A stretch of 64,000 bases of DNA. It comes from a virus. How positions within the stretch are numbered: the stretch's first letter is position 1; each line of letters begins with the position of its first letter. The translations under genes and the position numbers were made by a program. The stretch is taken from IMG/VR virus record IMGVR_UViG_3300013126_000011, one strand, 5' to 3'. The notes below the pieces were generated by a model. It was not told the DNA's origin. It did not search any database and saw nothing but the letters and a program-made list of their open reading frames with translations. Below, one piece after another: positions 30,390-64,000 of the stretch.

Positions 30390-30821
30390 ATGAATCTTAA
30401 AAAGATGATAAACGAGGCTTTCGAAGATCACATTAAGCAAGCCCAAGAAAAGCAACCAGAAATTATTCGTCATATCAAGTTGCAACTTCAAAGATTCGTT
30501 GAAGATGAATCGGTATTCACAGATATGATCGATGCTTTTGAACGCATTATCCGTATGGCTATGGCAGATAATACTTCTGATTCTGTTGACAAGATTGCAA
30601 GAGATCTAGACTTAGCTCCAGCTTTTGTCAGTTTTCATACCAGAATAGCGAAGAGAGATAAGAGCGATGGTTTACTGAATAAGTCGATTGACGTTAAACA
30701 GATTGCTTCAACAATTCAGAAACCAAAAGCCAGAGAATATGTACCTTCCTATCGTGATGAGAATGAAATGATTTATGGCAATTCTTATTCAGAGCCCGGT
30801 GGACATAGAACGGGAGATTAA
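30390..30821 (+). CDS. small protein with N-terminal LKKMIxE tag (putative internal head protein)
   Basis: MNLKKMINEAFE. Confidence 0.6.
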   Translation: MNLKKMINEAFEDHIKQAQEKQPEIIRHIKLQLQRFVEDESVFTDMIDAFERIIRMAMADNTSDSVDKIARDLDLAPAFVSFHTRIAKRDKSDGLLNKSIDVKQIASTIQKPKAREYVPSYRDENEMIYGNSYSEPGGHRTGD

Positions 30822-37000: not shown

Positions 37001-37212
37001 GCAATTTACCAAAATTTTCAACCTTTATTTTGGACGAGCCTGCTACCGGACTTGATGAAGAACGAATGGAAGGGTTTATTCGTGTTTTCGACTTGTTGAA
37101 GCTTCAATTTAGGTTGGTGATTCTCATTTCTCACCTTGATAGTCTCAAAGATGTAGCCGATTTGATCATCACGATTGATAAGGTTGATGGCTACGCCTCC
37201 GTTCGGATCTGA
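34051..37212 (+). CDS. fused Mre11/SbcD-Rad50/SbcC recombination nuclease (gp47-gp46 fusion)
   Basis: Phosphoesterase motifs SDLH, GDIAH, GNHD, GDIH; then Walker A GKSFVGKT, coiled coil, signature GSGAEK, Walker B ILDEP and ISH, all in one frame. Confidence 0.92.
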   Translation: MKIAAFSDLHVKTLKYHEEYLAVFQEFYKDLREQKPDVIVCAGDIAHSKVVLSPEYFSIAAKLFKELASIAPLYILAGNHDASFRGMTLRNASRLDAITPIIEALDNSNIHYMKQSGEYNINDNIVLNAMSLFDVDGWMQPTDPSKINVAVFHGAIIDASTDVGYTVDRSSGIDLSYFDSFDAAIFGDIHRRQFFSNTRGYVGSLIQQNHGEGVEKGYSIWLIKNKNDISVEFRPLRNPKPFITVNLDLAGNVPANLEIPVGSHVRVVAHSYISLDKMRKSLDVVKSKYLPEDISFVNKIDETKLQESVAVSSVVRGENLRYDEVQERMIRDYLKDFKPDDETMTSILKLNNQYNAAIKNDEEVARNVQWSVKKIEWDNLFNYGSGNYMNYEQLSGVAALLGKSFVGKTSTIDALLFGLFNTTSKNERKNVNVVNQHKNDAVVRLWLEANGISYRIERRVEKYVKRLHGVETIEAKTDVDFWEMQADGIEISRNGDTRSDTDRNIRTIFGTVEDFLLTSLSSQHGGLQYIFEGSTKRKEILARFLDLDSFDKKFKLAKEDSSTIKGALKRVEGIDYDTTLSHARTKLHLNEKEAQRVENKLTEINKTIADNQNQIDSFKQQLALIPKDIKEITETEEELAKKLIQQDALTSERDSLLDRNEELNKLIAKLNHLLDTFDIEGCRKQQDLIEQLSSEARKIEEKVAELNRNKLTNDKKTQLLLEVPCGEQFPACKFIRDAFKAKTENEYVCNNLKLQSEQLEKLTADKEALQPTKIEDLLYKYAELASQKTEFEQEVLTNQTLIEKDENALSVLIGYVSELQQRIAKSKADQKLIDSAKSLLEQLSEAEKLSIKYAKELSRLTTQRLEAYKTHGKLEGEINSVTEKIEERETLRNEFASYDLFMRCMHSNGISYDIIKSMLPVLNNEVAKVLANIVDFEVFFENNDDRLDIFIKHPKHESRPIEMGSGAEKTIAAMAIRLALTKIGNLPKFSTFILDEPATGLDEERMEGFIRVFDLLKLQFRLVILISHLDSLKDVADLIITIDKVDGYASVRI

Positions 37213-37267: not shown

Positions 37268-37570
37268 ATGAACGATAAGATCCATCTTAAGCAAGAACAG
37301 CTAACAGTACTAATCAAGGAGGCTTTGAAAGAAATCGTCGACGATCATCTTAATGAAGAAGCTGGAGAATTATACGGATATGATAGGTATTATTCGGCTG
37401 GTATTCTTGATGGTTCAGTTGGCAAGGAAATGAATGATTCGGTTTCTCGTGGATTAAAGGGTGGTACTGCGAAAAAGGCTTATGAAGAGGGCTATGCTGT
37501 AGGGCTTAAACAATGGGTAGCTCGACAGCCAATTAAGAAAGTTCAACAAGCTCCAAGGTGGGAGGAATAA
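37268..37570 (+). CDS. small protein with N-terminal tag
   Basis: IHLKQEQLTVLIKEALKEIVDDHLNEE, then YxxG repeats (YSAG, YEEG, YAVG). Confidence 0.7.
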   Translation: MNDKIHLKQEQLTVLIKEALKEIVDDHLNEEAGELYGYDRYYSAGILDGSVGKEMNDSVSRGLKGGTAKKAYEEGYAVGLKQWVARQPIKKVQQAPRWEE

Positions 37571-45927: not shown

Positions 45928-46149
45928 ATGAAGCTGGCAGAATTAATTCTTAAGAAGATGATTCGCGAAGCAGTTGAGGATGTCAAGAAAGATAGCGATC
46001 AAAAAGACTCTTGGCAGGCAATGAACGCGCTTGAATTATCAGAATATATGCAGGCTTTGAGAGCTAGGGTGCGATCTGAAGTGCAAGAGATTGAGCGGAT
46101 AAATCAACGTTTGCGAAAGTTAGGATATACAATTGATGGAAAACATTAA
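45928..46149 (+). CDS. small protein with N-terminal tag
   Basis: MKLAELILKKMIREAVE. Confidence 0.7.
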   Translation: MKLAELILKKMIREAVEDVKKDSDQKDSWQAMNALELSEYMQALRARVRSEVQEIERINQRLRKLGYTIDGKH

Positions 46150-47866
46150 AAGCCAGATAACAGATCAAGTAGCTGGCAAGTTTCTTCTGACAGAGTGGTT
46201 TGGTCTTTGTCCTGGCGGCGTTTGCCAAGATTTACTAACTGAAGCCGAGAAGCTTGATATCAAAAACAATAAAGCTGTTTATCTTACTGGCATTATGCAA
46301 AGAGCAGATGCCAAGAATGGTAATGGTCGAGTATATCCATATGAAACACTTAAGCGAGAGATGGACGTTTATCAGAAAATGATCAATGAACATCGAGCGT
46401 TAGGTGAGTGTGTTGATGGGGAAACAGAGTGCTTGACGAAGGATGGCTGGAAATCGATTGTTGACGTTAAAGAAAATGAAGAAATTTATACATTTAATGT
46501 CGACACGGAAGAAATGCAACTTCAGCCAGTCTTAATCAAGACTGAACGACTGCATCAAGGAAAAATGATTCATATTCATAACAAGAACAAGATTGATATG
46601 TTGCTCACTCCAGAGCATAAAATGATTTTGTGGGATCGATACGATAAGTCGTTTGAAATCACTGCTGGAGAGTTTGCTGAGAATTTCGAGACAGATTCGG
46701 GACTTCAACATTCATATTTTAGACGTGGCGGCATGAAGTGGAATGGAAAGCAAGCTGACACTGTTACAATTGGTTCTCATACGTATGATGCTGATCTTTG
46801 GGCAGCTTTTCTTGGTATTTATTTAGCAGAGGGTTTTACTTCTTATGACAAGAAAAATTGGGCAGAAGGTTGGAGAGTTTTTGTAGTTCAAACAAAAGAA
46901 GACACCAAAAATGAAATTCGAAAATTATTTAATGCATTATTCGCTAGCGAGAGAATTTATGAGACTACAAATAAAATTTCCAATAAGACTTCTTTTTCTG
47001 TTGTAAACAAAGACGTATTCGATTATGTAAGACCATTGGGGAAATCGTGGGAGAAATACATTCCAGAGGAAGTTAAAGAATGGGACGTTCGTAGACTTGA
47101 AATTTTGCTCGAATGGATGCTTAAGGGCGATGGCAGAAATCGACACAACAAAAAAGGCGAATTGATGAGGGAGTTGCACACAACTTCTTATCGATTAGCA
47201 AATGATGTGTCTGAAATCTTTCTGAAATTGGGTAGTGGTTCTGTAATGTCCGAGAGAACACAAAAAGATCGGATGATTGAGGGTAGGTTGATTGAAACCA
47301 AGAATTGTAGAAAATTGTACATTTCGTCTGAAAGTGTTACAAATCGTTCTTATTTTTATAAGAAATTTTTGAATATTAACGAAGTGGAATATGACGATAA
47401 TGTATACTGTGTAACGGTTGAGAACAAAACTTGGATTGCTCGTAAAAATGGTAGAATATTTATTACCCATAATTGTGATCACCCGACCTCAGAATTAGTC
47501 GAATTAAAAAATGCTTCTCATATGATCACAAGAACTTGGTGGAACGGAAAGGACGTTATGGGGACGCTTAAAGTGCTTTCCACGCCTTCCGGTAAAATTC
47601 TGGAAGCATTAGTGCGTGATGGCGTTCAGGTTGGAATCTCTTCCAGAGGTCTTGGAACGCTAACAGAAACCAGTGAAGGTTTGATGGTTGAAGATGATTT
47701 TGAGCTTGTTTGTTTTGATATTGTATCGGAACCATCAACTACCGGAGCTTTCATGAAGCCGACAATGTTGCATGAATCAAAAGTTCGTTTTAGCGACGTA
47801 TATACAAAAGCAGATCGAATTAATCGAATGATGATCAAAATTTTGAACGGAGTAAACAATAAATGA
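46133..47866 (+). CDS. prohead core protease (gp21-like) with LAGLIDADG intein
   Basis: NGNGRVYP, RALGE|...|CDHP, GISSRGLG, FDIVSEPST. Confidence 0.93.
   Translation: MMENIKSQITDQVAGKFLLTEWFGLCPGGVCQDLLTEAEKLDIKNNKAVYLTGIMQRADAKNGNGRVYPYETLKREMDVYQKMINEHRALGECVDGETECLTKDGWKSIVDVKENEEIYTFNVDTEEMQLQPVLIKTERLHQGKMIHIHNKNKIDMLLTPEHKMILWDRYDKSFEITAGEFAENFETDSGLQHSYFRRGGMKWNGKQADTVTIGSHTYDADLWAAFLGIYLAEGFTSYDKKNWAEGWRVFVVQTKEDTKNEIRKLFNALFASERIYETTNKISNKTSFSVVNKDVFDYVRPLGKSWEKYIPEEVKEWDVRRLEILLEWMLKGDGRNRHNKKGELMRELHTTSYRLANDVSEIFLKLGSGSVMSERTQKDRMIEGRLIETKNCRKLYISSESVTNRSYFYKKFLNINEVEYDDNVYCVTVENKTWIARKNGRIFITHNCDHPTSELVELKNASHMITRTWWNGKDVMGTLKVLSTPSGKILEALVRDGVQVGISSRGLGTLTETSEGLMVEDDFELVCFDIVSEPSTTGAFMKPTMLHESKVRFSDVYTKADRINRMMIKILNGVNNK
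46409..47473 (+). mobile_element. intein (355 aa) with LAGLIDADG homing endonuclease, in the prohead protease
   Basis: CVDGETECLT...LTPEHKM; FLGIYLAEG and LLEWMLKGDG blocks; VYCVTV...FITHN|C. Confidence 0.93.
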
Positions 47867-48171
47867 AATTAACTGAATCTCAATTAAAGCAAATTATTAG
47901 AGAGATCATCAAGGAAACTTGGAGAGATTTTCCATCTGACACTTATGCTAGCTCTGGCAACGGGCATTCTGTTAATAGAGAAGTAGATTGGCTTAAAAAT
48001 CAGCAAGATGCTAGTGCAAATGATGTTTCGTCTTGGCAAATCGTATCTTATGGAAAAAAGGTAGCCAAAGTGAATGCGTCGAACGAACGACAGGCTTTGC
48101 AAAAGTTCTTCGTGCAAAACAAGATCGATTTTAAAAATCAAAAACTATATGACGTGGTGCCAGCATCATGA
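47863..48171 (+). CDS. small protein with N-terminal tag
   Basis: MKLTESQLKQIIREIIKETWRD. Confidence 0.75.
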   Translation: MKLTESQLKQIIREIIKETWRDFPSDTYASSGNGHSVNREVDWLKNQQDASANDVSSWQIVSYGKKVAKVNASNERQALQKFFVQNKIDFKNQKLYDVVPAS

Positions 48172-48719
48172 AATTAACTGAAGCAGTATTAAAGAAAATC
48201 ATCCTTAAAGAGATTGCCGATCTTGATCTGCCTTTTGTAAATGAAGATGAGACAGTTCCGAATCCACAAATTGAACAGTGCATTGAAACATTGACTGATA
48301 CTTTGATCGATACATATGTTTCTCAGCATTCTGATTATCCAGGTGAATATGAGCATGAATCATTATCTGACAAGATTGAGCAGATTGTTCGCTCGCATGT
48401 TCAAGAAGCAATTCGACAAGTACAAGACTTTGCAAAGCATCATGGACCAAAAGAGTTTGCATTGGAGGAAGGATTTTTGGGATTTGGAAAGAAAGATCCG
48501 GCAGATAAGCTGCTGAAAGACCCTGGATTTAGAGCCGCTTGTCACAGTTTTAGACAGTCGCCTCCGGGTGAATTGGGAATGATTAGTCGAAAGATGCGAA
48601 TTGTAGCGGCACAAGTTTTATCTGATCAGGATATTGCTTTTACATCTGATGGCGAAGACGGCTTGGACATATTGGTGACTAAAGCCTATCAGCGATATGT
48701 TCGAGAAAATTCAATCTAA
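48168..48719 (+). CDS. protein with N-terminal tag and internal LxE sites
   Basis: MKLTEAVLKKIILKEI...FVNE...ALEEGFLG. Confidence 0.7.
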   Translation: MKLTEAVLKKIILKEIADLDLPFVNEDETVPNPQIEQCIETLTDTLIDTYVSQHSDYPGEYEHESLSDKIEQIVRSHVQEAIRQVQDFAKHHGPKEFALEEGFLGFGKKDPADKLLKDPGFRAACHSFRQSPPGELGMISRKMRIVAAQVLSDQDIAFTSDGEDGLDILVTKAYQRYVRENSI

Positions 48720-48735
48720 GAGAAACGAGGAAGAA

Positions 48736-49266
48736 ATGGATCGCAATAAATTAAAGGCACTTTTGAAGCCATTAATCAAGGAAGCGTTAAAAGAATGCAT
48801 TCTTGAAGAAGGTGTAATTTCAACGATTATTCGAGAGTCAATGAGTTTGACTGTCAATGATGTTGCCCCTCGTCAAGTTGTCAGAGAACAGAGAGCAAAG
48901 CCTTCTTCTGGAAAGAACAAGTTTGCGGAAGCATATGAAAGTCATTCTCTTGGAGAAGACGATCCTTCGGAAAATAGTGAAGTAGATGATGACGCTTTGA
49001 TTGCCAAGCAAGAAGAGATTGCAGCTTCCAGAAGAAGAATCGCTGAATCTCTTCGAAGTAGAATTGGTGCAGACATATTCGAAGGAACAGAAGCAATTGG
49101 CGGCGATCCAATGCAAGAACTAGCTGCTGGTAATAATCCTGGCGTTGCTGCCGCAAAGGGTCCATTGGCTGATGTAGATCCAAATGACGAAGGAGTCAAT
49201 TTAGGTCTAATTACAGAGATTGCCGGTGGCAGAAAAAACTGGAAGCAAGTAATGGAGAGAGTATAA
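48736..49266 (+). CDS. head-module protein with N-terminal tag
   Basis: MDRNKLKALLKPLIKEALKECILEE; GAGG SD upstream of 48736. Confidence 0.7.
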   Translation: MDRNKLKALLKPLIKEALKECILEEGVISTIIRESMSLTVNDVAPRQVVREQRAKPSSGKNKFAEAYESHSLGEDDPSENSEVDDDALIAKQEEIAASRRRIAESLRSRIGADIFEGTEAIGGDPMQELAAGNNPGVAAAKGPLADVDPNDEGVNLGLITEIAGGRKNWKQVMERV

Positions 49267-49910: not shown

Positions 49911-51161
49911 ATGTCAAATTTTCTCAAAGGTGGCAAAGGCGATAAGCTTTCCAAAAAGGACGTTGATCCTGTTCAATTAAAGATGGGAATCAAGGTCGAA
50001 ATGGAGCATGCGTCCGACCCTAGAAAAGCTGCTGAAATTGCGCTCGATCACCTTTCGGAAGATCCAAAGTACTATAGCAAGTTAAAGGCTGCTGGATTGG
50101 CTGATGAACTTGATGAATCTAGTCAAGCTTCACAAGATTTAGAAAAGATTTCCATTCAATATAAACCAAATTTTTCTCCTTTTAAAACGTTAAAGTTTGT
50201 ACGTTGTGGTGGAAAAAATTTCAAGAAAAATGCTTATTATAGAAGTTCGAAAAATACCGGTCATCAACCGCCAGAAATGCATGGTTTTTATGCTTTTCCG
50301 GAAAATTATGTTGAACGATTTTTGGTTGTTAATCCTGGCGATTGTGGAGTATTTAATTATTCTGGTTTGTTGTGGACATATTTGACTGTTGCGTTACCAA
50401 AGGATGCAAAAATTTATGATAGAAAAAATGGTTGGGTATTAGTCAGTACTGATACATATGAGAAAATTCTAACAAAGTACAATGCATTAAAAAATGTTGA
50501 TGCGGCGAAAAATTATACGGATTACGGAAAGAAAACAAAGACAGATCCTTCTAGGAGAAGTGGGCATAGAATATTCAGTAAGGACAATTACGAAGTATTC
50601 ATTCCCGAGAAGAACTTTCATCGCAGATCTGAATTAAGCGAAGAGAACAATAGTCACGTCACTTTTATAGAAGCGACCAAACAAGATCTTCCAGGGCTTA
50701 TGAAAGTTGATCACGAAGTTTTTGAGTTTCCGTATTCTCAAAACACGTGGAACAAATTTTTTATCGATACAAAAAAACACGTCGTCATGAAGATGGTTGA
50801 TGGAGACAATATCTGTGGTTTTATGATTATGGACAAATATCCAGAGCATCTTCTCTTCAATAAGATGGGAATCGATAAGGCTCATCGAAGGCAAGGTCTT
50901 GGTGAACGAGCAATGTACTATGTTGATGATTATGCTCGAAAGAGTGGATATGACACAGTTCTTGGGCATGTACGACACAACAATATTGCTTCGTTGGCAA
51001 TGCACAAAAAGACTGGTTCAGACTGTCAAGAAACAGACGGAACATATCAAAACGGCGATAAAGTGATTCGGTGTGTGCGAAATCTAAAGAAAAAGAATAA
51101 TCAGCTTTCAGAAATGATTCTTGAAGCGGTTAATGTAGCGTTAAACAAATTTTCTAGGTAG
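49911..51161 (+). CDS. multidomain protein: DUF5661-like + unknown domain + GNAT (RimI-like) acetyltransferase
   Basis: QLKMGIKVEMEH...EIALDHLSEDPKYYSKL; GNAT motif A MGIDKAHRRQGLG and VRHNNIASLAMHKKTG; domains separated by LDE and LSEE. Confidence 0.75.
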   Translation: MSNFLKGGKGDKLSKKDVDPVQLKMGIKVEMEHASDPRKAAEIALDHLSEDPKYYSKLKAAGLADELDESSQASQDLEKISIQYKPNFSPFKTLKFVRCGGKNFKKNAYYRSSKNTGHQPPEMHGFYAFPENYVERFLVVNPGDCGVFNYSGLLWTYLTVALPKDAKIYDRKNGWVLVSTDTYEKILTKYNALKNVDAAKNYTDYGKKTKTDPSRRSGHRIFSKDNYEVFIPEKNFHRRSELSEENNSHVTFIEATKQDLPGLMKVDHEVFEFPYSQNTWNKFFIDTKKHVVMKMVDGDNICGFMIMDKYPEHLLFNKMGIDKAHRRQGLGERAMYYVDDYARKSGYDTVLGHVRHNNIASLAMHKKTGSDCQETDGTYQNGDKVIRCVRNLKKKNNQLSEMILEAVNVALNKFSR

Positions 51162-51451: not shown

Positions 51452-53095
51452 ATGTCTGATTTGTATAAGAGCGCAATTGCTGATGCCAAGCTTCTAAGAG
51501 AAGCTGCAATCAAGAGCGTCGAATCGGTTATTTTAGAAAAATATAGTGGAGATATTAAGCAAGCTGTTGATGAAGTGCTATCTGGTAATTCAGATGAGCT
51601 TTATGAAGCTAATGAAACAGAAGATGAAAATGTCGACAAGAAGAGCGACAAGAATCTTTTTGGACCCAATGGTGATGGTTCTCCAACAAATGATTTGCCA
51701 AATCCAGACAATCTTGGTTCCCTGACAGATACAGCCGACGTTGGAACAGATCTTTCGGCAAACTCGGATGATCCTGATTCGCAAGATCCAATGACTGCTG
51801 ATGTTATGAATTCTTCTGGAGATGCAGAAGCAAAACAAGATGCAACAGCAGAAGATGATAGCTTTCCTGATATGCCCGATCAAGCAATGGATGGTGAATC
51901 TGTTAGTGGAGCCGTTCAGACAAACGGAGAAATCGAGATCGATCTTTCCGAGCTAGAAGCAATGGCAAATTCGAAGCCAAATAAAGTACAAGATGTAAGT
52001 CAAGATACACAATCTCATGAATCGATCCTTCCAGATATGGGCGGTAGTGAGAATTCAATGGAAGAGCCGCTGAAGGAAGCAATTGATTCTGATGAAGAAG
52101 CTCCTAAAGAAGATCATAATGGTCGAAAGCTTATCATTGATGATGAAGTATTAGAACAACTTGCAGAAGCACTAATGAACGAAACAGATGATACTGGTGC
52201 TAGTGAAGCAGGTGCTTTAATTGAGCGTTATAATACCAATAATGAATATGATGATTCTGATGAAAGAGAAGAACGTCGTAGAGCCAAAGAAGAGTATGAT
52301 GAAGGTTGGGCAGATCGTGAACATGATCGACACAAAGAGGGTGACGATGAGTACGACGATCTTGACGAGTCCGTTGAAGATGAACTAAGTGCAGATAAAC
52401 CATCGAATACACAGCTTGTCGAAGACTATAAAGAGAATCTATTAGAAGATATTGACTTTGATTTTGAGGAAGTGCCTTCCGGAAATATCAATGGAAATTT
52501 TGGTGGTGTTCCAGAACCAGAAAAGCGATTTGAAAAAGATCGTATGGCTGCTGCCAAGAATCTAAAAGATAAGAAAGACGAAGAAACGAAAAGAGCGGCT
52601 TTAATGGAAGCCGTTTCAAAAGAAGTTGACAAGAAGGTTAAGAAGCTTTCAGTACGTTTGAATGCATTGGAGCAAAAGAATCAAGATTTAGTCAACGAAA
52701 ATCAGAAGCTAGCAACTGATCTGAAAAATACTAGCACAAAGCTATTGGAAACCATTACGAACAATAGCAAGCTTCACTATGCAAATCGTATTTTAAGAGA
52801 TGGCTCCTTGAATGAGCAACAGCGCAATAAGCTTGTAGAGTCTTTAAAGAAAGCGAATAGTGCAGAAGAAGCAAAGTCGATTTTTGAAACAGCAAAGAGT
52901 CTTGTTGAGTCTGTCGGAAGCACCCGAGGAAGCGTCATGACTGGAAAAGCACCGTCACTCAATGAGGTTTTAGCTAATCGAAATCGAACAAAGACCTTTA
53001 ATAGTTCGGGGCAAAATGATCGAGAAGAGGAAGGCAATCCGATTTCTTCATCAATTAGAGAGAGTTGGAAGAAAATTGCCGGAATTAAGAACTAA
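51452..53095 (+). CDS. prohead scaffold/core protein (gp22-like)
   Basis: Directly upstream of the major capsid gene; AIADAKLLREAA N-terminus, long acidic region with many LxE sites, coiled coil, NSKLHYANRI, ends WKKIAGIKN. Confidence 0.8.
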   Translation: MSDLYKSAIADAKLLREAAIKSVESVILEKYSGDIKQAVDEVLSGNSDELYEANETEDENVDKKSDKNLFGPNGDGSPTNDLPNPDNLGSLTDTADVGTDLSANSDDPDSQDPMTADVMNSSGDAEAKQDATAEDDSFPDMPDQAMDGESVSGAVQTNGEIEIDLSELEAMANSKPNKVQDVSQDTQSHESILPDMGGSENSMEEPLKEAIDSDEEAPKEDHNGRKLIIDDEVLEQLAEALMNETDDTGASEAGALIERYNTNNEYDDSDEREERRRAKEEYDEGWADREHDRHKEGDDEYDDLDESVEDELSADKPSNTQLVEDYKENLLEDIDFDFEEVPSGNINGNFGGVPEPEKRFEKDRMAAAKNLKDKKDEETKRAALMEAVSKEVDKKVKKLSVRLNALEQKNQDLVNENQKLATDLKNTSTKLLETITNNSKLHYANRILRDGSLNEQQRNKLVESLKKANSAEEAKSIFETAKSLVESVGSTRGSVMTGKAPSLNEVLANRNRTKTFNSSGQNDREEEGNPISSSIRESWKKIAGIKN

Positions 53096-54950: not shown

Positions 54951-55856
54951 ATGGAAAGTGGAGTATACATTATTCGAAATTTGATCAATGGAAAAGTTTA
55001 TATTGGAAGTTCTGTAAATTTAAAAAATCGACAGCGAGAACATTGGAGTCATCTGCAAAAAGGAAATCATCATAACGTTCACCTTCAACATGCTTGGAAT
55101 AAGTACGGAGAAAAAGCGTTTGTTTTTGAAACCGTTGAATATGTTGAAGAATCTTGGCTTTTATTGTTTGAGCAAAAATATATCGATCAATATTGCAGCT
55201 ATGATGGTGAGCGCGGATACAATATTTGCAAAGTAGCTGGAAATACATTAGGTTTTCATCACTCTTCGGAAACGAAAGAGCAGATTTCTAATCTCAACAA
55301 GGGTCGAGTTATGCCAGAAGACGCTAAAAGACGAATTAGCGAGGCGAATTCCGGCTCTGGTAATTATTTTTATGGCAAGCATCATACTGACGAAACAAAA
55401 CGAAAGATAAGCGAGGCAAATAAAGGACGTAAAAGAACTGAAGAGCAAAGGGCAAGATTGCGAGGACTTCAAGTTGGAGAAAAAAGTGCAGTGGCAAAAC
55501 ATACCTGGGAAGAAGTGAGAGAGGCTAGAAAGCTATATTCTTCTGAAGAAATGACAGCAACGCAATTAAAAGAAAAATACAATTGGCCAGGAATTTCTAT
55601 CATGCTTGAAAATAAGACTTGGTACGACAAAGAGTATTCTCCACCAATTAAAGTTGTTGATAACCAGCCAAAACTTTCGATAGATGTCGCTAAAGAGATT
55701 CGTCAAAAATATGGTAATCCAGACAATAGACCTAATACGGCAGAAATTTCTAAAATCTATGGTATTCAAATTGCTGCTCTAAATAAATTGCTTAGAAATG
55801 ATACGTATTTCGATCCGGATTATCGCCCAATTCAAGTACGCCCTCGACGAAAATAG
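54951..55856 (+). CDS. free-standing GIY-YIG homing endonuclease with NUMOD3 repeats
   Basis: GVYIIRNLINGKVYIGSS, EQKYID, GYN; HHSSETKEQIS and GKHHTDETKRKISEA. Confidence 0.93.
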   Translation: MESGVYIIRNLINGKVYIGSSVNLKNRQREHWSHLQKGNHHNVHLQHAWNKYGEKAFVFETVEYVEESWLLLFEQKYIDQYCSYDGERGYNICKVAGNTLGFHHSSETKEQISNLNKGRVMPEDAKRRISEANSGSGNYFYGKHHTDETKRKISEANKGRKRTEEQRARLRGLQVGEKSAVAKHTWEEVREARKLYSSEEMTATQLKEKYNWPGISIMLENKTWYDKEYSPPIKVVDNQPKLSIDVAKEIRQKYGNPDNRPNTAEISKIYGIQIAALNKLLRNDTYFDPDYRPIQVRPRRK

Positions 55857-55866
55857 TCGATTTTGT

Positions 55867-55894
55867 TTTACAGTCCTCCTATATATGTTATACT
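55867..55894 (+). promoter_or_regulatory. sigma70-type promoter with extended -10
   Basis: TTTACA-16 nt-TATACT with TG at the extended -10 position. Confidence 0.55.
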
Positions 55895-55953
55895 GTAGCT
55901 ACAATCCACGGAAGATGGATATATGGTAATGACTTGGTACGACAAACAGGAGA

Positions 55954-57405
55954 TTGAAAATGGAAAAATGTAAAGCATGTAACAAGGTGCTTGATTCTGT
56001 TCCGGAACTGGTCAGACACATTATGACAGATCATAAAATGACAACCGAAGCGTATACTGTGAAATATCTTTATGACGGAAAGCGTCCGGTTTGTCCTGAA
56101 TGCGGTAAGACGACGCGCTATGTTCAATTTCAATTTCGAACATATTGCAAAGAACACGCAAATTTAGCTAGAGCCAAATCCTGTAAAGAAGTTGGAAAGC
56201 TTCCGTCATGGAACAAAGGTCAGACTAAAGAAACAAATGAAATATTGCGTAAGCAAGCAGAATCTTTTAAAGGTGAAGGCAATCATTTTTTTGGCAAACA
56301 TCATTCTGAAGAAACAATCGAAAAGCTTCGTAATCAAAAGCTTCTTACTGAAGAAGAATACTATGCGCGCACTTTAACCAGATGTAGTTTACCGAATGAA
56401 GAGAAAAAGAAAGAATTTGTGCTGCTGACGCCCTACTCTGAATACCTTTCCAGACAACATCAATGTTTGCAATTGCAGTGTACAAAGTGCGGTACTGTCG
56501 ATAAAAAGACTTTGCAAGCGTTTGAACGTCAATCAAAGTGCAAAGTATGTTATCCGATTCAGAAAAATTCAAGAGAAGAGCAAGAAGTAAAAGATTTCGT
56601 AAGATCTGTTTGCGCTTGTGAATTGATTGAAAATTCTAAGCAAGTTATACCTCCAGTTGAATTAGATCTCTATGTACCAGAAAAGAAGCTAGCTATCGAA
56701 TATAATGGTCTATACTGGCACACAGAGGAAAGTAAATCAAAATCCTATCACAAAGACAAAACCGTCGCCTGTGCTGCCAAAGGAATCAGATTGTTTCATA
56801 TTTTTTCTGATGAGTGGCGGGATAAACAGCCAATTTTAAAATCAATGATTGCTTATCGCCTGGGGGTGCTAACGAATCGTGTATCTGCTCGTAACTGTGA
56901 AATCAGACAATTGACGACTGCTGAAGCGAAGCAGTTTTTTGATTTAACGCATATTTCTGGCTGGACTCATTCAAGAATTGTTTTTGGTCTTATCGATGAT
57001 GATAATTCTGTTGTGGCTGCTCTTGGTCTTCGAGTACCACAACAAAAAGCAAAGTATCCAAATGCTTTAGAGATCTCCAGATTTTCAAACAAGCTTGATA
57101 CCATTGTTAATGGTTCTTTTGCTAAATTACTTGAAAAAGCTAAAGCATACGCAGTCGAAAACGATTTTACCAGTTTAATCACTTATGCAGATCTTCGGTT
57201 TGGAGATGGCTCAGTATATGTTCGTAACGGTTTTGAAGAATTGCAAGAGTCTGTGCTAGATTATTGGTATACTGATGGAGCAGAAAGATATCCAAGGTTT
57301 TCGTTTAGAGCGACAAAAGAGAAATCAGAAAAAGTGCTTGCTCTTGAGGCAAATGTCAGTAAAATCTACGGTTGTGGTTCTAAAAGATATCGATTGAAGC
57401 TTTGA
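55954..57405 (+). CDS. Hef-like homing endonuclease (Zn ribbons, NUMOD3, DUF559/Vsr-like nuclease, C-terminal GNAT-like domain)
   Basis: CPECG, GKHHSEET, ELDLYVPEKKLAIEYNGLYWH, HIFSDEW, EISRF, TYADLRFGDG, KIYGCG. Confidence 0.8.
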   Translation: MKMEKCKACNKVLDSVPELVRHIMTDHKMTTEAYTVKYLYDGKRPVCPECGKTTRYVQFQFRTYCKEHANLARAKSCKEVGKLPSWNKGQTKETNEILRKQAESFKGEGNHFFGKHHSEETIEKLRNQKLLTEEEYYARTLTRCSLPNEEKKKEFVLLTPYSEYLSRQHQCLQLQCTKCGTVDKKTLQAFERQSKCKVCYPIQKNSREEQEVKDFVRSVCACELIENSKQVIPPVELDLYVPEKKLAIEYNGLYWHTEESKSKSYHKDKTVACAAKGIRLFHIFSDEWRDKQPILKSMIAYRLGVLTNRVSARNCEIRQLTTAEAKQFFDLTHISGWTHSRIVFGLIDDDNSVVAALGLRVPQQKAKYPNALEISRFSNKLDTIVNGSFAKLLEKAKAYAVENDFTSLITYADLRFGDGSVYVRNGFEELQESVLDYWYTDGAERYPRFSFRATKEKSEKVLALEANVSKIYGCGSKRYRLKL

Positions 57406-58423: not shown

Positions 58424-58948
58424 ATGGTACCGAGTTTTGTTAAGGTATTTTTGTTTCTATTTTTCTCGTGTACTCAAAGTCAATATGCAATCAAGCAATC
58501 GATGTGTCCAACGTTTTCCGAGATGATCACAATCAGTTATCAAATTGCAAGAGAATCAATCGAACAACAGTTTCCATATCCAGTCGTTGTTGCTGCGATT
58601 GTCTGGAAAGAATCGAAGATTAAGAGATTGGCAACTGGAATGGATCGCGATCTTGGACTAATGCAGGTTCGATGGCCAAAGAAGGGCAATACATATGCTA
58701 CTCACAAGCAAAACAAAGATCGAACGCCAAACCTATATGACTCTGAAGAGAACCTTAAAGAAGGAATTGCTCGATTGGTCGAATGGCGCAGAAGCGACAA
58801 GGTGAACTATACAGCCCATTTCAATTGCGGATCGAATTTAAAGAGCAAACTTTGCAGAAAGAAGAATCACGGACTCGATTATCAACAGCAAGTATATGCA
58901 TCTATTTCTAGGTTTCTTCGAACGTTGAGGGCTTCCGATTTGTCTTGA
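58424..58948 (+). CDS. lytic transglycosylase (SLT) with N-terminal signal/anchor
   Basis: AIVWKES, DLGLMQV, ENLKEGIARL, HFNCG; hydrophobic N-terminus ending FFSC. Confidence 0.8.
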   Translation: MVPSFVKVFLFLFFSCTQSQYAIKQSMCPTFSEMITISYQIARESIEQQFPYPVVVAAIVWKESKIKRLATGMDRDLGLMQVRWPKKGNTYATHKQNKDRTPNLYDSEENLKEGIARLVEWRRSDKVNYTAHFNCGSNLKSKLCRKKNHGLDYQQQVYASISRFLRTLRASDLS

Positions 58949-59626: not shown

Positions 59627-59841
59627 AATCATACAGAGACTTAGAAGTTGGAAGTATTTATAAGTTTGGCGTACAGAGTCGAGGATTATTGTGGTTGTAC
59701 TTAGGGTTTATGCCTTCGGCTGATGGTTGTGTTGCACACAATTACTTTCTTAGTATGGAAAAGTATTATGTTGATTGTTTCTCTATTAGAGAGTTAAATA
59801 ATGACATTCGGCGTGGACGAATTAGAAAGATCTTGTCATGA
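59623..59841 (+). CDS. small KOW/SH3-like protein
   Basis: MKSYRDLEVGSIYK...LYLG; ATGA-coupled start at 59623. Confidence 0.6.
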   Translation: MKSYRDLEVGSIYKFGVQSRGLLWLYLGFMPSADGCVAHNYFLSMEKYYVDCFSIRELNNDIRRGRIRKILS

Positions 59842-60128
59842 ATTCCGATTTTGATAGTTTGCCGATTCTTGATAAAGAATCGTTCAAAACGGTTAAGACT
59901 GGCGAGTTATATCGACTTCAAGAGCTTGGTCCTACGATTTTTGATAGTACCACGTTTGAGCCACATAGAAAAGTATTAAAAGATCGATATTTGTTGGTTC
60001 AAGTGGTCGACGAAGTTAAGAAATTTGGTACTAACTACAGTGCTCCCTGTATAGATCTCAATTCTGGCGTAACGATAATCGTAAATTATGCGATGTCAAG
60101 CGGAAAGCTAGATTATTACAATTACTAG
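59838..60128 (+). CDS. small KOW/SH3-like protein
   Basis: VKTGELYR; N-terminus similar to 59300 (LPIL versus LPVL). Confidence 0.6.
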   Translation: MNSDFDSLPILDKESFKTVKTGELYRLQELGPTIFDSTTFEPHRKVLKDRYLLVQVVDEVKKFGTNYSAPCIDLNSGVTIIVNYAMSSGKLDYYNY

Positions 60129-60157
60129 CTACTAGTTGCCTCTCCTTTCTCCAACGC

Positions 60158-60164
60158 CTATTTA
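60158..60164 (+). promoter_or_regulatory. candidate late promoter CTATTTA
   Basis: 33 nt upstream of the neck gene ATG. Confidence 0.55.
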
Positions 60165-60197
60165 TGACTGAACAGTACTGTTGGAGAAATCCCAAAT

Positions 60198-61460
60198 ATG
60201 CCACCTTCTTATCTTCCACAATCGAGCTATAATCAATATATCCTGCCAGCTACAGGCACAATTGAGAATGTTGTTGATGCACTGTCTCTAGGTGTATACG
60301 CTTCTTCTACAGAATTCCTAAGTGGTGCTGCTGCACAGGTTTCATATGTCTACAATGAGCTTGGTGGTGAAATTCTCGATCAAGAATTAACTGAAAAGCA
60401 AGTTTATGAGAGCTATGAACGTGCAACTACAGAATATTCTTATATTCTCAACCTTCATCAAGGCAAAAACGTGCTTATGCAGGCTCTTGGAAGCCCAACA
60501 GCCTCATTTGATCACGAAGGAACCGTTGTTGACGGTCCAGAAGGAGCAAATTTAACCTATCCTCGTTTTGATTTTGGCTATATGCGAAGAACGGCTGAAG
60601 GATATTCGGCAGAATTATCAATGGGAGGCACACAGACTGTCTATTCAGCCTCTTTTGACGTGGAAATTGATAAACAAGACTATGATTTACAGCAAATCTT
60701 GTATTCTGCAAGTCTAAATGCTGATTGTCCTTGGAGTGGATCGTTTGCTGACGGCGCAACAAACACATTGATTCGTGTAAAACGTGTATTTTACAAGACT
60801 CCGAGAGCAACTTGGAGATATTTTGGTTATTATGGTTTGGGAGGTCTTGATACAGTTGGAGCGTTGTCAAGCTATGGTCAGTTTGCAAGTGCTTCAACGT
60901 TCCAGTTGGTTCCTGTGTGGCAAAATAAGCTTCAGGCGATGCATTATAGTGATGCTTTGTACACTCGTTTGGCTCATTATTCGTATGAGTTGAGAAACAA
61001 CAAGCTTAGAATTTTTCCAATTCCAAGAGAACCATTTGCAACAAGTAAAATGTGGTTTGAGTTCATTATTCCAAAAGGATCATTCGAGGATGGTGAACGA
61101 GAAAACGGAATGCATGGTGTTAACAACCTTGGAACGTTACCATTTGACAATCTTCCTTATGAAGCAATCAATGCAATTGGTAAGCATTGGATTCGAAGGT
61201 TCTCTCTGGCTCTCTGCAAGATGCGAATGGGATATACTCGCTCAAAGCTTCGTTCAATTCCAATTCCAGGTAATGAACTGACCCTAAATGGCGCGGAATT
61301 GTTGACTGAGGGCAAAGAAGAGGTAAAAGATCTGCGAGAAGAGCTAAAGAAAATCCTTGATGAACTAACCTATCAGAAATTAGCCGAGATGCAAGCAGAT
61401 ACGGCAGAAAAGACAATGAGCGTATTGAATAAGATTCCTCTTGGCATTTACGTTGGATAA
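60198..61460 (+). CDS. neck protein (gp13-like head-tail adaptor)
   Basis: ELGGEILDQELT; WIRRFSLALCKMRMGYTRSKLRSIPIPGNELTLNGAELLTEG. Confidence 0.8.
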   Translation: MPPSYLPQSSYNQYILPATGTIENVVDALSLGVYASSTEFLSGAAAQVSYVYNELGGEILDQELTEKQVYESYERATTEYSYILNLHQGKNVLMQALGSPTASFDHEGTVVDGPEGANLTYPRFDFGYMRRTAEGYSAELSMGGTQTVYSASFDVEIDKQDYDLQQILYSASLNADCPWSGSFADGATNTLIRVKRVFYKTPRATWRYFGYYGLGGLDTVGALSSYGQFASASTFQLVPVWQNKLQAMHYSDALYTRLAHYSYELRNNKLRIFPIPREPFATSKMWFEFIIPKGSFEDGERENGMHGVNNLGTLPFDNLPYEAINAIGKHWIRRFSLALCKMRMGYTRSKLRSIPIPGNELTLNGAELLTEGKEEVKDLREELKKILDELTYQKLAEMQADTAEKTMSVLNKIPLGIYVG

Positions 61461-61463
61461 GTA

Positions 61464-62288
61464 ATGAATACACCTTCAATCAATTATGCTCAAATAGAAG
61501 CGGTCTTCAAGTATTTTCACGTTTCCGACACAAAGTTGGGTAAAAGAGATACGTTTATTTTTAATCCTCGCGTTCCAAGAACACCATATGTTCATAACAA
61601 CTATCGAATTGAGGATGATTTTACCGAAAGAGTATCTTTGGCTCCTAGAATTGTCGATGCAATGCAGGCTGGTGCTGATGGAAGATACGTTTATGCTGGT
61701 GACTTCAAGATTTTCAATGACGACGATATTAAAGCTATTGATTTGATGAAATATTGGCGAAAATGTCCATTTGCGGTTGGTGGCGTTGAAGATTTCAATA
61801 TGAGAACTTGGCTTGAAGACATTTACAAAGAAAGATTCAACGACGATTCGATTCGAGTGATTATGCGAAATGGTGATGCAGCCGTACATGGAAATGCTGG
61901 TGCAGTTGATACAGCCAACGCAAATCGCTACATTCAAGTTTATAGCGACAAGAAAGATAAGACGCTTCTCAGACTTCCAGTGAAAACTGGATTGATGGGC
62001 TATTTTGGTCCTCGTGACCTTCCAGATGATTTGCAAAAATTATGGTATGCTTGTGTACCAGACGCAGATGAAACGCATGAAAAGTGGTCTACAGACGATG
62101 TGAAGATGGTATTTGTCGGCATGCGCGATTCAGGAACAATTCACCTGTCTGAAACTGCCACAGAAATTTTGATGAAGCTTGGGTATCTCAATAAATCTGG
62201 TAAATTTACCAACTTGGCAGTGCCGACCGTTGGTTCTACAGAGAAGCTATATGAAAGTTGGCGCGATTGGAGCAAACGAGGATGGTAA
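61464..62288 (+). CDS. accessory protein with a putative ADP-ribosyltransferase-fold domain
   Basis: YFHVS...PRVP...EDDFTERVSLAP...YVY...VPDADETHEKW; paralogous to the C-terminal domain of 62770; C-terminal LYESWRDW. Confidence 0.5.
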   Translation: MNTPSINYAQIEAVFKYFHVSDTKLGKRDTFIFNPRVPRTPYVHNNYRIEDDFTERVSLAPRIVDAMQAGADGRYVYAGDFKIFNDDDIKAIDLMKYWRKCPFAVGGVEDFNMRTWLEDIYKERFNDDSIRVIMRNGDAAVHGNAGAVDTANANRYIQVYSDKKDKTLLRLPVKTGLMGYFGPRDLPDDLQKLWYACVPDADETHEKWSTDDVKMVFVGMRDSGTIHLSETATEILMKLGYLNKSGKFTNLAVPTVGSTEKLYESWRDWSKRGW

Positions 62289-62773
62289 GCGACAATAAAT
62301 TCACACCATTAACAACTGCTCCACCTCCTTTGTTCGTTGGTAAGAAAGAACGTGATTTTGTTGCTCATATTACACTTGAAACAGAAGAAAGAATCATTGG
62401 ACAATCGATCTTGTATTATCCAATCGACATTATGACGACAAACTATCATTCAGTATACGGTGAAGCGATAAAGAAGAACTTTTTACCTCCAATTCAAGTG
62501 TACGTGGCTATTGAATGGGAAGGCTACAAGACGGATACCGAAAAGATGGGAGTTGATCGATATGCTAGCATGAAGGTCCACTTTTTCAAACGAAGATTGA
62601 CAGAAGAAAAGGATCTTGAGGTGCAAACAGGCGATTACGTTTTGTACGGAGAACAATATTACGAAATTGTCGAATTAAATGAGCCAAGAGAACTGTTTGG
62701 TCAAGTTTTTGCCGACAAAGTAGAGATTGAAGCAAAATGCATCAGAGCTAGAGAGGGATTGTTTAAGGGATGA
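62282..62773 (+). CDS. neck/head-closure protein (gp14-like)
   Basis: PLFVGKKERDF, ILYYPID, HSVYGEAIKKNFLPP, GDYVLYGEQYYEI. Confidence 0.75.
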   Translation: MVSDNKFTPLTTAPPPLFVGKKERDFVAHITLETEERIIGQSILYYPIDIMTTNYHSVYGEAIKKNFLPPIQVYVAIEWEGYKTDTEKMGVDRYASMKVHFFKRRLTEEKDLEVQTGDYVLYGEQYYEIVELNEPRELFGQVFADKVEIEAKCIRAREGLFKG

Positions 62774-63999
62774 AGTTATATGAAGCTGAAAGAGAATATT
62801 GGGGCAACAAAGCTGCTGGAGTCTTATGCGTAAGCGCTCAATCTGGTAGATTTTTGGTAATGCTTCGTTCTGATGAAGTAAATGAACCTAATACTTGGGG
62901 CGTTCTATCTGGCAAGGTCGACGGCAAAGAATCATTTGAACAAGCAGCTACCAGAGAAGCAAGAGAAGAGACAGGATACACAGGCAAAGTGTCATTGACT
63001 CCAATGTATAAGTTTAAAGACAATGACTTTACGTTTCAGAACTTTTTGGGCATTGTTGACCAAGAGTTTGAACCAAAATTGAATTGGGAATCAGAGGATT
63101 CTCGTTGGCTTACATTACAACAACTAGAAAAACTACCAAGAAAGCACTTTGGATTGACTGCTCTTCTCAAAGACCAAAAGTCATATGATTTGCTCAAGAA
63201 ATATGAGAACAAGACCGCTTCAGAGCTTCAAAAAGGCTGGAAAAGTTATATCGGAGAGGCAAAGCAAACAATTATTCCAGATAGAATAACATTCGAACAA
63301 GCAGAATCAATTTTCAAGTACTTTCATCTTAGCTGGAAAAAATTAGGAGAAGATACGTTTACTTTTAGTGCGAGAATACCAAATGGTCCTGCACCTTGGG
63401 AAGATGATTTTACCAAGCGTGTTTCTTTGGGACCAACAATCAATGACTGCTTGGTTGCTGGTGCTGATGGTCCTTATGTTTACGCAGGAGATCTCAAATT
63501 TACTCCAAAAGATGATATTCCAATTGTTGATGTTGAAGAAACTTGGGACGATTGCCCATATAAGAAGTTTGCAAAGAAAGCTTATCGTGGAATAATGAGT
63601 TCAGCTGAAGCCTTTCAGTGGTTTTTAAAAGAGTTACGCAAAAACGGTGAGACTTTGTACTATTATTCGAGAAACGCTAAAGGATGGAAAAAGGTGCCAG
63701 AAAACGATATTGAGAAACAAAATAGTATCGTATATTATAGTTTGCCAATATCGCTTGAACAGAATGGTCATAATTATTGGGTATTTGGCAACGATCCATC
63801 TATTTCTTTGCCTGAAAAATACCAAAAGGCTTGGTATTCATGTGTACCAGATGCAAAGATTACTCACGAGAAGTGGAGTCCAAAAGACGTTAAATTAATG
63901 TATGTTGGAGCAATGGATAGTCGAAACAAGGATATTATTCTCACCGATCATATGAAGCAGTTCTTGATTAAAGTTGGAGTTGTTTTTAATGAAGAATAA
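62770..63999 (+). CDS. Nudix hydrolase fused to a putative ART-fold domain
   Basis: Nudix box GKVDGKESFEQAATREAREETG; linker LQKGWKSYIGE; then YFHLS...EDDFTKRVSLGP...VPDAKITHEKW. Confidence 0.75.
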   Translation: MKLYEAEREYWGNKAAGVLCVSAQSGRFLVMLRSDEVNEPNTWGVLSGKVDGKESFEQAATREAREETGYTGKVSLTPMYKFKDNDFTFQNFLGIVDQEFEPKLNWESEDSRWLTLQQLEKLPRKHFGLTALLKDQKSYDLLKKYENKTASELQKGWKSYIGEAKQTIIPDRITFEQAESIFKYFHLSWKKLGEDTFTFSARIPNGPAPWEDDFTKRVSLGPTINDCLVAGADGPYVYAGDLKFTPKDDIPIVDVEETWDDCPYKKFAKKAYRGIMSSAEAFQWFLKELRKNGETLYYYSRNAKGWKKVPENDIEKQNSIVYYSLPISLEQNGHNYWVFGNDPSISLPEKYQKAWYSCVPDAKITHEKWSPKDVKLMYVGAMDSRNKDIILTDHMKQFLIKVGVVFNEE

Positions 64000-64000
64000 T

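Follow-up and report, generated by a model that had tools for sequence, protein, structure and literature searches.

A duplicated phage domain with a predicted ADP-ribosyltransferase fold, one copy fused to Nudix, beside the neck genes of an uncultivated virus

In bacteriophage T4, proteins are targeted to the prohead by the capsid targeting sequence (CTS), which comprises the N-terminal 10 residues of IPIII and is cut off by gp21. Its residues 8 and 10 govern this processing, the cut falls behind a glutamyl residue, and Alt is shortened at either terminus (PMC9026906). ADP-ribosyltransferases (ARTs) and Nudix enzymes encoded among the morphogenesis genes of myoviruses are predicted to be packaged into heads, and both Nudix fusions to head proteins and RNA-repair contexts of phage KptA and Nudix have been described (Iyer et al. 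2022, PMC9503650). Here we analyse IMG/VR virus record IMGVR_UViG_3300013126_000011, a stretch of 64,000 nucleotides whose whole length we call the window. Near its end, two copies of one domain, X1 and X2, stand on either side of a neck-module gene, and X2 is fused to a Nudix domain. Our best description of X is that of a new family within a known superfamily, invisible at the sequence level, with an atypical signature and deployed in the style of T4 Alt.

Duplication of X and its viral family

X1 (61464..62288, + strand) is a free-standing protein of 274 residues with a predicted ART-fold domain. X2 (63286..63978, +), the second predicted ART-fold domain, makes up residues 173-403 of the Nudix-X2 fusion, a protein of 409 residues in the list of open reading frames (ORFs; 62770..63999, +). 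The original prediction had taken the two for a duplication, and this is borne out: BLASTP of the product of 61464-62285 against that of 62770-63996 gave 94 identities in 251 positions (37%, E 7e-43) and aligned X1 residues 6-240 with fusion residues 173-403 (63286-63978). The protein motifs it had listed, FKYFH(V/L)S, EDDFT(E/K)RVSL, AGADG(R/P)YVYAGD and WY(A/S)CVPDA..THEKWS, are all found in both copies, as are the matching DNA words GATGATTTTACC (61614 and 63403) and TGTGTACCAGA (62052 and 63841), each with exactly 2 occurrences in the window against 0.00-0.01 expected. A hidden Markov model (HMM) of the family matched X2 at E 5.6e-59, and in the six-frame translation of the window it found no copies besides X1 and X2. 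A third paralog, P0003 (305 residues), is 50% identical to X2 (E 5e-85) and probably lies on the same contig as X1 and Nudix-X2, outside the window, since the longest recorded contig is of equal length (165,727 bp) for all three. In a quick maximum-likelihood tree, X1 with P0002 and P0003 with X2 form sister pairs within one clade (Shimodaira-Hasegawa-like approximate likelihood ratio test, SH-aLRT, 99, 96 and 96), a grouping that points to a lineage-specific expansion. X is single-copy in four other phage genomes.

An exhaustive HMMER search delimited the X family as 128 cluster representatives, 79 of them at E <= 1e-10 and most 180-280 residues long; all are metagenomic and every source name reads 'hypothetical protein'. 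X1 matched nothing in Pfam or PHROG, and phmmer and hmmsearch against PDB sequences returned no ART, the family profile matching none at E <= 10. Tblastn of X1 and two other members against 50,697 phage records gave no match, blastn of the locus against these records no nucleotide match, and a pattern scan of 185,579 prokaryote genomes no X relative. Within the limits of these searches, the family appears to be viral.

PHROG matches among 119 members were to groups of unknown function only: phrog_25542 (39 members), phrog_5043 (25) and phrog_10766 (13). phrog_5043 includes Salmonella phage SPN3US gp246, Erwinia phage Ea35-70 gp168 and Pseudomonas phage Noxifer gp128. The Ea35-70 protein (Ea357_168) aligned to the X family profile with an hhalign probability of 95%, and the motifs FH(I/V)ST, E(D/N)RSV.R(I/V)S and T(E/D)E.W are common to X and these relatives. 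SPN3US gp246 (L040, 221616-222245; E 9.5e-90 to the phrog_5043 model) is encoded immediately downstream of the characterised prohead protease gp245. For Ea357_167, whose gene precedes that of the Ea35-70 relative, a prohead-protease identity as in SPN3US found no support (E 0.047).

In X1, an N-terminal core (residues 6-100) and a C-terminal core (183-240) are conserved and enclose a hypervariable insert (101-182); across the family, the insert between the conserved halves is 21-99 residues long. E50, D51 and R56 are invariant in all 119 sequences (119/119 each), and nearly so are H19 (114/115), T54 (116/119), S58 (112/119), Y77 (117/119), E206 (118/119), W208 (116/119) and the block C197-V-P-D200 (108-117 of 118-119). 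While the cores of X1, X2 and P0003 are 39-73% identical, their inserts are merely 5-10% identical, and this divergence beside conserved cores looks like the signature of an arms race. Two cysteines of X1 are conserved as well, C101 in KCP (99/116) and C197 in CVPDA (108/119), an indication of a disulfide or of a metal/redox site; a number of ART toxins rely on disulfides or on thioredoxin.

Upstream of X1, a gene for a gp13-like neck protein of 420 residues (60198..61460, +) ends 3 nt before the X1 start. Its product matches PHROG 211 (head-tail adaptor, E 5e-7) and, over residues 292-384, the T4 gp13 chains 9mkb/9lu4 (phmmer against PDB, E 4.5e-4). Between X1 and the fusion lies a neck-module gene in the gp14 position (62282..62773, +; from 62258 in the ORF list). 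The ATG of this gene overlaps the X1 stop (ATGGTAA, 62282-62288, with GAGG just upstream), and its stop overlaps the ATG of Nudix-X2 (ATGA, 62770-62773). No terminator-like site was predicted between X1 and Nudix-X2, the sole site in 59800-64000 being inside the gp13-like ORF. Together, the four + strand genes that close the window have the look of a single late operon.

The gene in the gp14 position has two starts, TTG 62258 (171 residues) and ATG 62282 (163 residues), of which the ATG agrees with orthologs of 162-164 residues. The original prediction had called it gp14. Its position after a gp13 homolog and its conserved synteny agree with that name, but the protein matched nothing in Pfam, PHROG, PDB sequences or phage tblastn, T4 gp14 included; we therefore keep the name as a positional label only. 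Orthologs with 56% (L001) and 49% (L014) identity adjoin gp13-like genes. The gene is also homologous to the one directly after the gp13-like gene of Microcystis phage Mel-JY01 (25%, E 2e-9); Mel-JY01 and Flavobacterium phage immuto hold its closest cultured relatives.

We compared this arrangement with other viral contigs, using a profile from a 22-row family alignment; a scan of the contigs with a single X protein gave no match. On the 201-kb IMG/VR contig L001, the order is that of the window: capsid gene, gp13-like gene, X and gp14-position gene. The gp13-like ortholog is directly upstream of X there and close to X in L014 and L015, where X is near the neck genes. On other contigs X is near capsid-gene fragments or elsewhere in the late region, and in L016 and L005 it lies outside the neck module. 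In Mel-JY01 the two neck genes are adjacent with no X in between, and X was not found anywhere in the Mel-JY01 or immuto genomes. Hence, we regard X as an accessory gene inserted into late operons. The Nudix-X2 protein is identical to P0014, on record from 3 contigs. The window stretch was present in four lake-water metagenome runs (97-100% of sampled words), and no RNA runs were found among the sequencing runs containing it.

Predicted fold and candidate active site

We modelled X1 with AlphaFold2 and the family alignment (predicted local distance difference test, pLDDT, 89; predicted template modelling score, pTM, 0.85), and likewise the compact member P0028 of 208 residues (pLDDT 94.8, pTM 0.86). 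In an exhaustive VIA search with the P0028 model, 73 of 48,161 PDB representative chains reached Z >= 2, and among the 50 listed of these 73 almost all belong to the ART superfamily. The top matches were TreX (Z 5.7 over 103 residues, root-mean-square deviation (rmsd) 3.4), EcPltA (5.2), pertussis S1 (5.0), Scabin (4.9) and Arr (4.8), followed by LT, ParT, RES toxins, DarT, MbcT, pierisin, Tpt1, PARPs and diphtheria-like toxins. With the X1 model, all core-spanning matches were ARTs (TreX Z 4.6, pertussis S1 3.9, Arr 3.8), and the remaining rows cover the insert at 113-177 only. Foldseek with the P0028 model placed Arr at ranks 1 and 2, then cholera, LT, PltA and pertussis chains, none of them significant. 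A search of BFVD returned uncharacterised phage proteins only and the ESM Atlas gave no useful neighbour, the Atlas model of X1 itself being poor (pTM 0.27).

Because the lists from two models and two programs are near-exclusively ART, the assignment is credible, and X very probably has the ART fold. The fold had been proposed earlier from the layout of conserved residues, and it gains from the almost pure ART list that the models of X1 and of its compact relative retrieve, at modest scores. Comparison by Foldseek, also proposed at that time, went part of the way: ARTs took the top ranks, but with no significant E-value.

H19, S58 (with Y77) and E206 lie on predicted strands that match the triad-bearing strands of ARTs. 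The aligned ranges of the structural search open 3-6 residues ahead of the conserved His; provided that no gap falls in the first strand, this His would take the place of the catalytic Arg in LT, pertussis S1, PltA and Scabin. Counted from the alignment ends, E206 would come within a few residues of TreX E101/E103, which are the ExE residues of that toxin (PMC11606950). The X1 strand R-V-S-L-A, with the helix after it, is the topological counterpart of the S-T-S strand, and Y-V-Y-A-x-D forms the next strand. The X signature may then be written as His, Ser (with Tyr) and Glu plus an extra invariant Glu-Asp...Arg. It fits neither the R-S-ExE nor the classical H-Y-E pattern, and at the markers of the R-S-E clade X has His in place of Arg, R-(V/I)-S-L-A where that clade has S-T-S, and T-x-E-x-W instead of E-x-E.

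Motifs that depart in this way from canonical R-S-ExE and H-Y-E could belong to a catalytically dead ART-like module, comparable to pseudo-PARPs, which would serve as a neck or head accessory or as a carrier of fused enzymes (Nudix, GNAT). The conserved site between two neck genes, the fusion of X to unrelated enzymes on either side and the presence of pseudo-ART domains such as TASOR among the structural matches are consistent with such a role. However, the invariant polar cluster (H, E-D, R, S, Y, D, E) is kept across 119 divergent sequences, a conservation typical of an active or ligand-binding site, and the H / E-D / R-x-S block is present in the remote phrog_5043 relative too. X is, moreover, outside the neck module in L016 and L005, and its absence from the closest cultured relatives argues that it is not a core structural part. 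We consider a dead module quite improbable.

Leaders, head genes and the Nudix partner

Members of the family often begin with a short amphipathic leader. Among 106 members with an N-terminal extension, 75 have hydrophobic-hydrophobic-x-E within the first 30 residues, compared with 30.8 +/- 4.5 (maximum 45) in composition-preserving shuffles, a 2.4-fold enrichment; MKTLLENWKTYLKE and MKLLREYIRQILKE are typical. A related motif, hydrophobic-x-E-x-W-[KRN], occurs in 13 of 106 N-leaders versus 0.48 in shuffles. Within the family it is C-terminal in X1 and P0002 only: the X1 tail (62247..62285, +) carries the tag-like LYESWRDW and its ortholog P0002 has FESWRNW, to be compared with IRESWKK in a scaffold-like protein of the window and LLENWK/R in the N-leaders of relatives. 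All + strand ORFs of the window together hold 3 occurrences of this motif, each at most about 20 residues from the protein end.

The window encodes, all on one strand, a large terminase, a portal, a Peptidase_S77 protease, an acidic scaffold-like protein and a gp23-type capsid protein. The protease is of the T4 gp21 type and its gene contains an intein (46133..47866, +; PF03420 Peptidase_S77, 84 bits; PHROG 207 head maturation protease, E 1.9e-45). This enzyme would be expected to process X leaders. Since most relatives carry leaders resembling the T4 CTS and the phage encodes a gp21-type protease, X proteins probably enter the prohead, are trimmed there and reach the host together with the DNA, in the manner of T4 Alt.

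Leaders of this style were also seen on small late ORFs with unrelated bodies (47863-49266, 30390-30821 and 37268-37570), which carry the hydrophobic-x-E leaders MKLTESQLKQIIRE, MKLTEAVLKKIILKE and MNLKKMINE; MKLTESQLKQIIRE and MKLTEAVLKKIILKE head small ORFs just past the protease gene. The scaffold-like protein (51452-53095), very acidic and 547 residues long, is encoded upstream of the capsid gene; its C-terminus, IRESWKKIAGIKN, shares a short motif with the X1 C-terminus and many X-family N-leaders.

Alternatively, X might be a real late enzyme that is neither packaged nor injected, the leader helix being structural or generically amphipathic, and might act late, for instance on phage or host components during assembly. 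X1 indeed has no N-terminal leader, the P0028 leader is modelled by AlphaFold2 as a helix (pLDDT 69-85), and the text of the SPN3US head-proteome paper does not mention gp246. Against this alternative, the leader motif exceeds the shuffles 2.4-fold and, like gp21 sites, has Glu at its end, comparable leaders open unrelated small ORFs near the protease and scaffold genes, the C-terminal tag of X1 and its ortholog matches the scaffold C-terminus, and a gp21-family protease is encoded. A purely intracellular late enzyme thus seems rather unlikely to us.

The fusion of one copy to Nudix, noted in the original prediction, is clear: residues 14-125 of the fusion (62809..63144, +) match PF00293 with 55.8 bits (cut-off 21.1, E 6e-15) and PHROG 1198 (MutT/NUDIX, E 5.5e-22). 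The Nudix box (GX5EX7REUXEEXGU) is complete, spans G48-Y70 at 62911-62979 and reads GKVDGKESFEQAATREAREETGY. Nearest among phage relatives are Nudix proteins of jumbo phages (BcepSauron, 41.5%); the nearest solved ones, MutT, Ap4A hydrolase, NudJ and DCP2, are all weak matches (E >= 7.7e-5). A Pro about 15-16 residues past the box is said, after Dunn et al. in 1999, to mark ADP-ribose-specific Nudix enzymes. By this rule the fusion lacks the marker, its only nearby Pro standing 8 residues past the box.

Between the two domains, the linker ELQKGWKSYIGE (fusion residues 152-163; 63223..63258, +) reads as a retained leader and is a candidate prohead-protease cleavage site. It resembles the P0003 leader ...WIKWRSFISE and ends in I-x-E (IGE), and the leader positions of the family HMM, from model position 7, align to the fusion from residue 151 onward. 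The earlier suggestion that the two domains are separable at WKSYIGE is therefore plausible: the P0003 leader KWRSFISE aligns there, the end is I-x-E and a gp21-family protease is present.

Other members join X to further enzymes. In P0057 the order is X-Nudix; the X part has its closest relatives in another clade (P0038, P0032) and the Nudix part is 42% identical to that of the window, so that it is, to judge by these affinities, an independent fusion of the same two modules in opposite order. P0066 and P0076 are X-GNAT fusions, P0013 is X-X, and a search for longer fused forms yielded P0063 only. In P0080, with 3111 residues, X (about residues 1884-2002) shares the chain with a LigD 3'-phosphoesterase, an NT5C nucleotidase and an ATP-dependent DNA ligase that has an OB domain, so that this giant protein resembles the 'polyvalent proteins' of phages. 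In P0087 (513 residues), stretches that look PARP-like by eye (LWHVG..., GDGIYFAS...) precede X (residues 327-487); they had no Pfam or PDB sequence match. A protein of 416 residues at 49911-51161, a head-module protein with an N-terminal DUF5661 and a C-terminal GNAT acetyltransferase, was considered as a hidden carrier of X and ruled out (hhalign probability 0.2%).

P0080 bears on the possibility that X, although ART-fold, serves NAD chemistry on nucleic acids or small molecules and not the modification of host proteins. X might then ADP-ribosylate or cap DNA or RNA ends, remove 2'-phosphates in the manner of Tpt1/KptA, or cleave NAD+, with Nudix clearing the ADP-ribose-derived product. The enzymes joined to X in P0080 are those of end healing and end sealing, and His at position 1 recalls the H-H-h and H-Y-[EDQ] clades with Tpt1, DarT and Arr, all of them matched by the models; the NADases RES and Tne2 are also among the structural neighbours, and phage KptA has been placed with Nudix in RNA-repair contexts (PMC9503650). 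Yet P0080 is the sole fusion of its kind among 128 representatives, the others being to Nudix and GNAT, and the best structural neighbours are protein-modifying R-S-E toxins. The hypervariable insert, too, looks more like a device for recognising macromolecular targets. The characteristic pattern of Tpt1 is Arg-His-Arg-Arg, and it is not evident in X. Overall, we judge this use of the fold unlikely.

Several further features of the window and of related contigs were recorded. The intein of the protease gene comprises Intein_splicing (residues 107-447) and LAGLIDADG_3 (330-396) domains in Pfam. Directly after the capsid gene, two homing endonuclease genes (GIY-YIG and HNH) stand back to back at 54951-57405, and similar endonucleases are found near capsid-gene fragments or neck genes in L005, L006, L013 and L014. 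A single ORF of 1053 residues (34051-37212) has an SbcD-like nuclease at its N-terminus and an SbcC-like ATPase in the remainder; in L016 the SbcD- and SbcC-like parts are separate ORFs (220 and 869 residues). A gene for a protein of 174 residues with an SLT lytic transglycosylase domain (58424-58948) follows the capsid region and precedes the neck genes.

Proposed mechanism and comparison with known systems

The explanation that we prefer combines an ART-fold expansion, NAD+ use, head loading and pairing with Nudix, and as a whole we give it an even chance. X1, X2 and probably the third copy would represent a lineage-specific expansion of an unannotated, phage-restricted ART-fold family of NAD+-using transferases. 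To their triad, strand 1 would contribute His19 and strand 2 Ser58, with Tyr77 behind it, and Glu206 would stand ahead of strand 5; the family-specific invariants E50-D51 and R56 would adjoin it, and the hypervariable insert of 21-99 residues would choose the target. The X genes would form part of the late neck operon, with their translation coupled to it. In the simplest history, a Nudix gene would have been joined in front of an X gene that bore a leader, so that an I-x-E now lies inside the protein, and this retained leader (...WKSYIGE, followed by A) could let the protease part Nudix and X2 inside the head. Nudix would then act on the pyrophosphate bond of ADP-ribose, be it free ADP-ribose, an NAD-derived signal or an ADP-ribose adduct.

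Our analysis establishes the paralogy of the copies, their family and its conservation, the fold as a prediction, the synteny, the enrichment of leaders, the protease gene and two Nudix fusions. What we infer here are catalysis, target, packaging, cleavage and Nudix substrate. The injected writer/eraser or anti-defence pair of the original prediction would be consistent with the gene context, the leader tags and two independent X/Nudix fusions; an enzymatic, injected, writer/eraser role remains a reasonable proposal and agrees with the view taken in PMC9503650.

A number of observations weigh against this explanation. Besides the missing leader of X1, the silence of the SPN3US head-proteome text on gp246 and the absence of X from Mel-JY01 and immuto, Nudix proteins of the same subfamily are encoded in two other X-bearing phage genomes far from X. 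A Pfam hmmscan of 119 members at E <= 10 matched no model and no ART family, Arr-ms included, and Foldseek against PDB gave nothing at E <= 0.001 with either model. Z-scores below 8 in the structural-search tool can reflect a mere common arrangement, and the best here is 5.7. The triad was mapped from alignment ranges, not from a residue-level superposition. Finally, the chemistry of X may differ from that of ARTs of the R-S-E type, because the nearest structures are R-S-E and X has His and T-x-E.

A bolder version would place X in the ART superfamily as a new clade, marked by an active-site signature of its own (His / Glu-Asp...Arg-x-Ser / Tyr / Glu), and would make it an interchangeable, tag-addressed head cargo of T4-like and jumbo phages. 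In the Nudix fusion, the ART would add ADP-ribose and Nudix would cut the pyrophosphate, leaving a phosphoribosyl mark beyond the reach of host macrodomain and ARH erasers. Such sequential ART and Nudix marking, if true, would be a phage analogue of the two-step SidE chemistry; we hold this version to be improbable as it stands.

T4 Alt and the virus ART families catalogued so far were all found by sequence, and X is invisible to Pfam. With 128 metagenomic clusters and remote relatives in well-studied jumbo phages, X is yet missing from the records of cultured phages at BLAST level. Should X prove to be an active ART, a new clade of effectors would be added, unusual in its catalytic signature and equipped with a hypervariable insert for target recognition. 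The family offers a natural ART-Nudix pairing in both domain orders, and a concrete test case for asking whether uncultivated freshwater phages generally load cargo by means of T4-style capsid-targeting tags.

Among known ARTs, the R-S-E toxins TreX/Tre1, Scabin, pertussis S1, PltA and LT are the best structural matches (Z 4.3-5.7 over 98-117 residues, rmsd 3.4-4.7 A). In them as in X, a helix comes after the Ser-bearing strand and the Glu stands ahead of strand 5, in equivalent order. However, identity is 8-13%, X is without the catalytic Arg, no counterpart to its E-D...R-x-S block and CVPDA was identified in the toxins, and X bears a large variable insert at the site of their ARTT region. 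Arr, a minimal H-type ART, is like X a small single domain with His at position 1 (VIA Z 4.8). In contrast to phage-only X, it is bacterial and has an antibiotic target; as the top Foldseek match it is not significant (E 0.44), and the Arr-ms Pfam family matches no member. The proteins of PHROGs 25542, 5043 and 10766 are remote homologs with motifs in common with X, but these jumbo-phage proteins have no assigned fold or function, are without the CVPDA motif and lie beyond the reach of tblastn from X. Nudix enzymes of phage late and virion clusters (T4 NudE-type) have, as does that of the window, an intact box and a late-operon site, and a predicted role against NAD- or ADP-ribose-derived molecules (PMC9503650). 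The window enzyme differs in its partner, an ART-fold domain known with it in both orders, and it is not demonstrably NudE.

The closest parallel is T4 Alt, an R-S-E enzyme packaged in the head. Common to both are the ART fold, predicted in the case of X, and a T4-type myovirus with a gp21-family protease, and the termini of X proteins look like targeting peptides of the kind that gp21 processes (PMC9026906, PMC9503650); delivery with the DNA as an effector would be a further likeness, for X an expected role only. The two have no detectable sequence similarity, and X has His for the strand-1 Arg and T-x-E for E-x-E. Unlike Alt, X is much smaller (a core of about 180 residues), lies in a neck operon and is triplicated, with one copy fused to Nudix.

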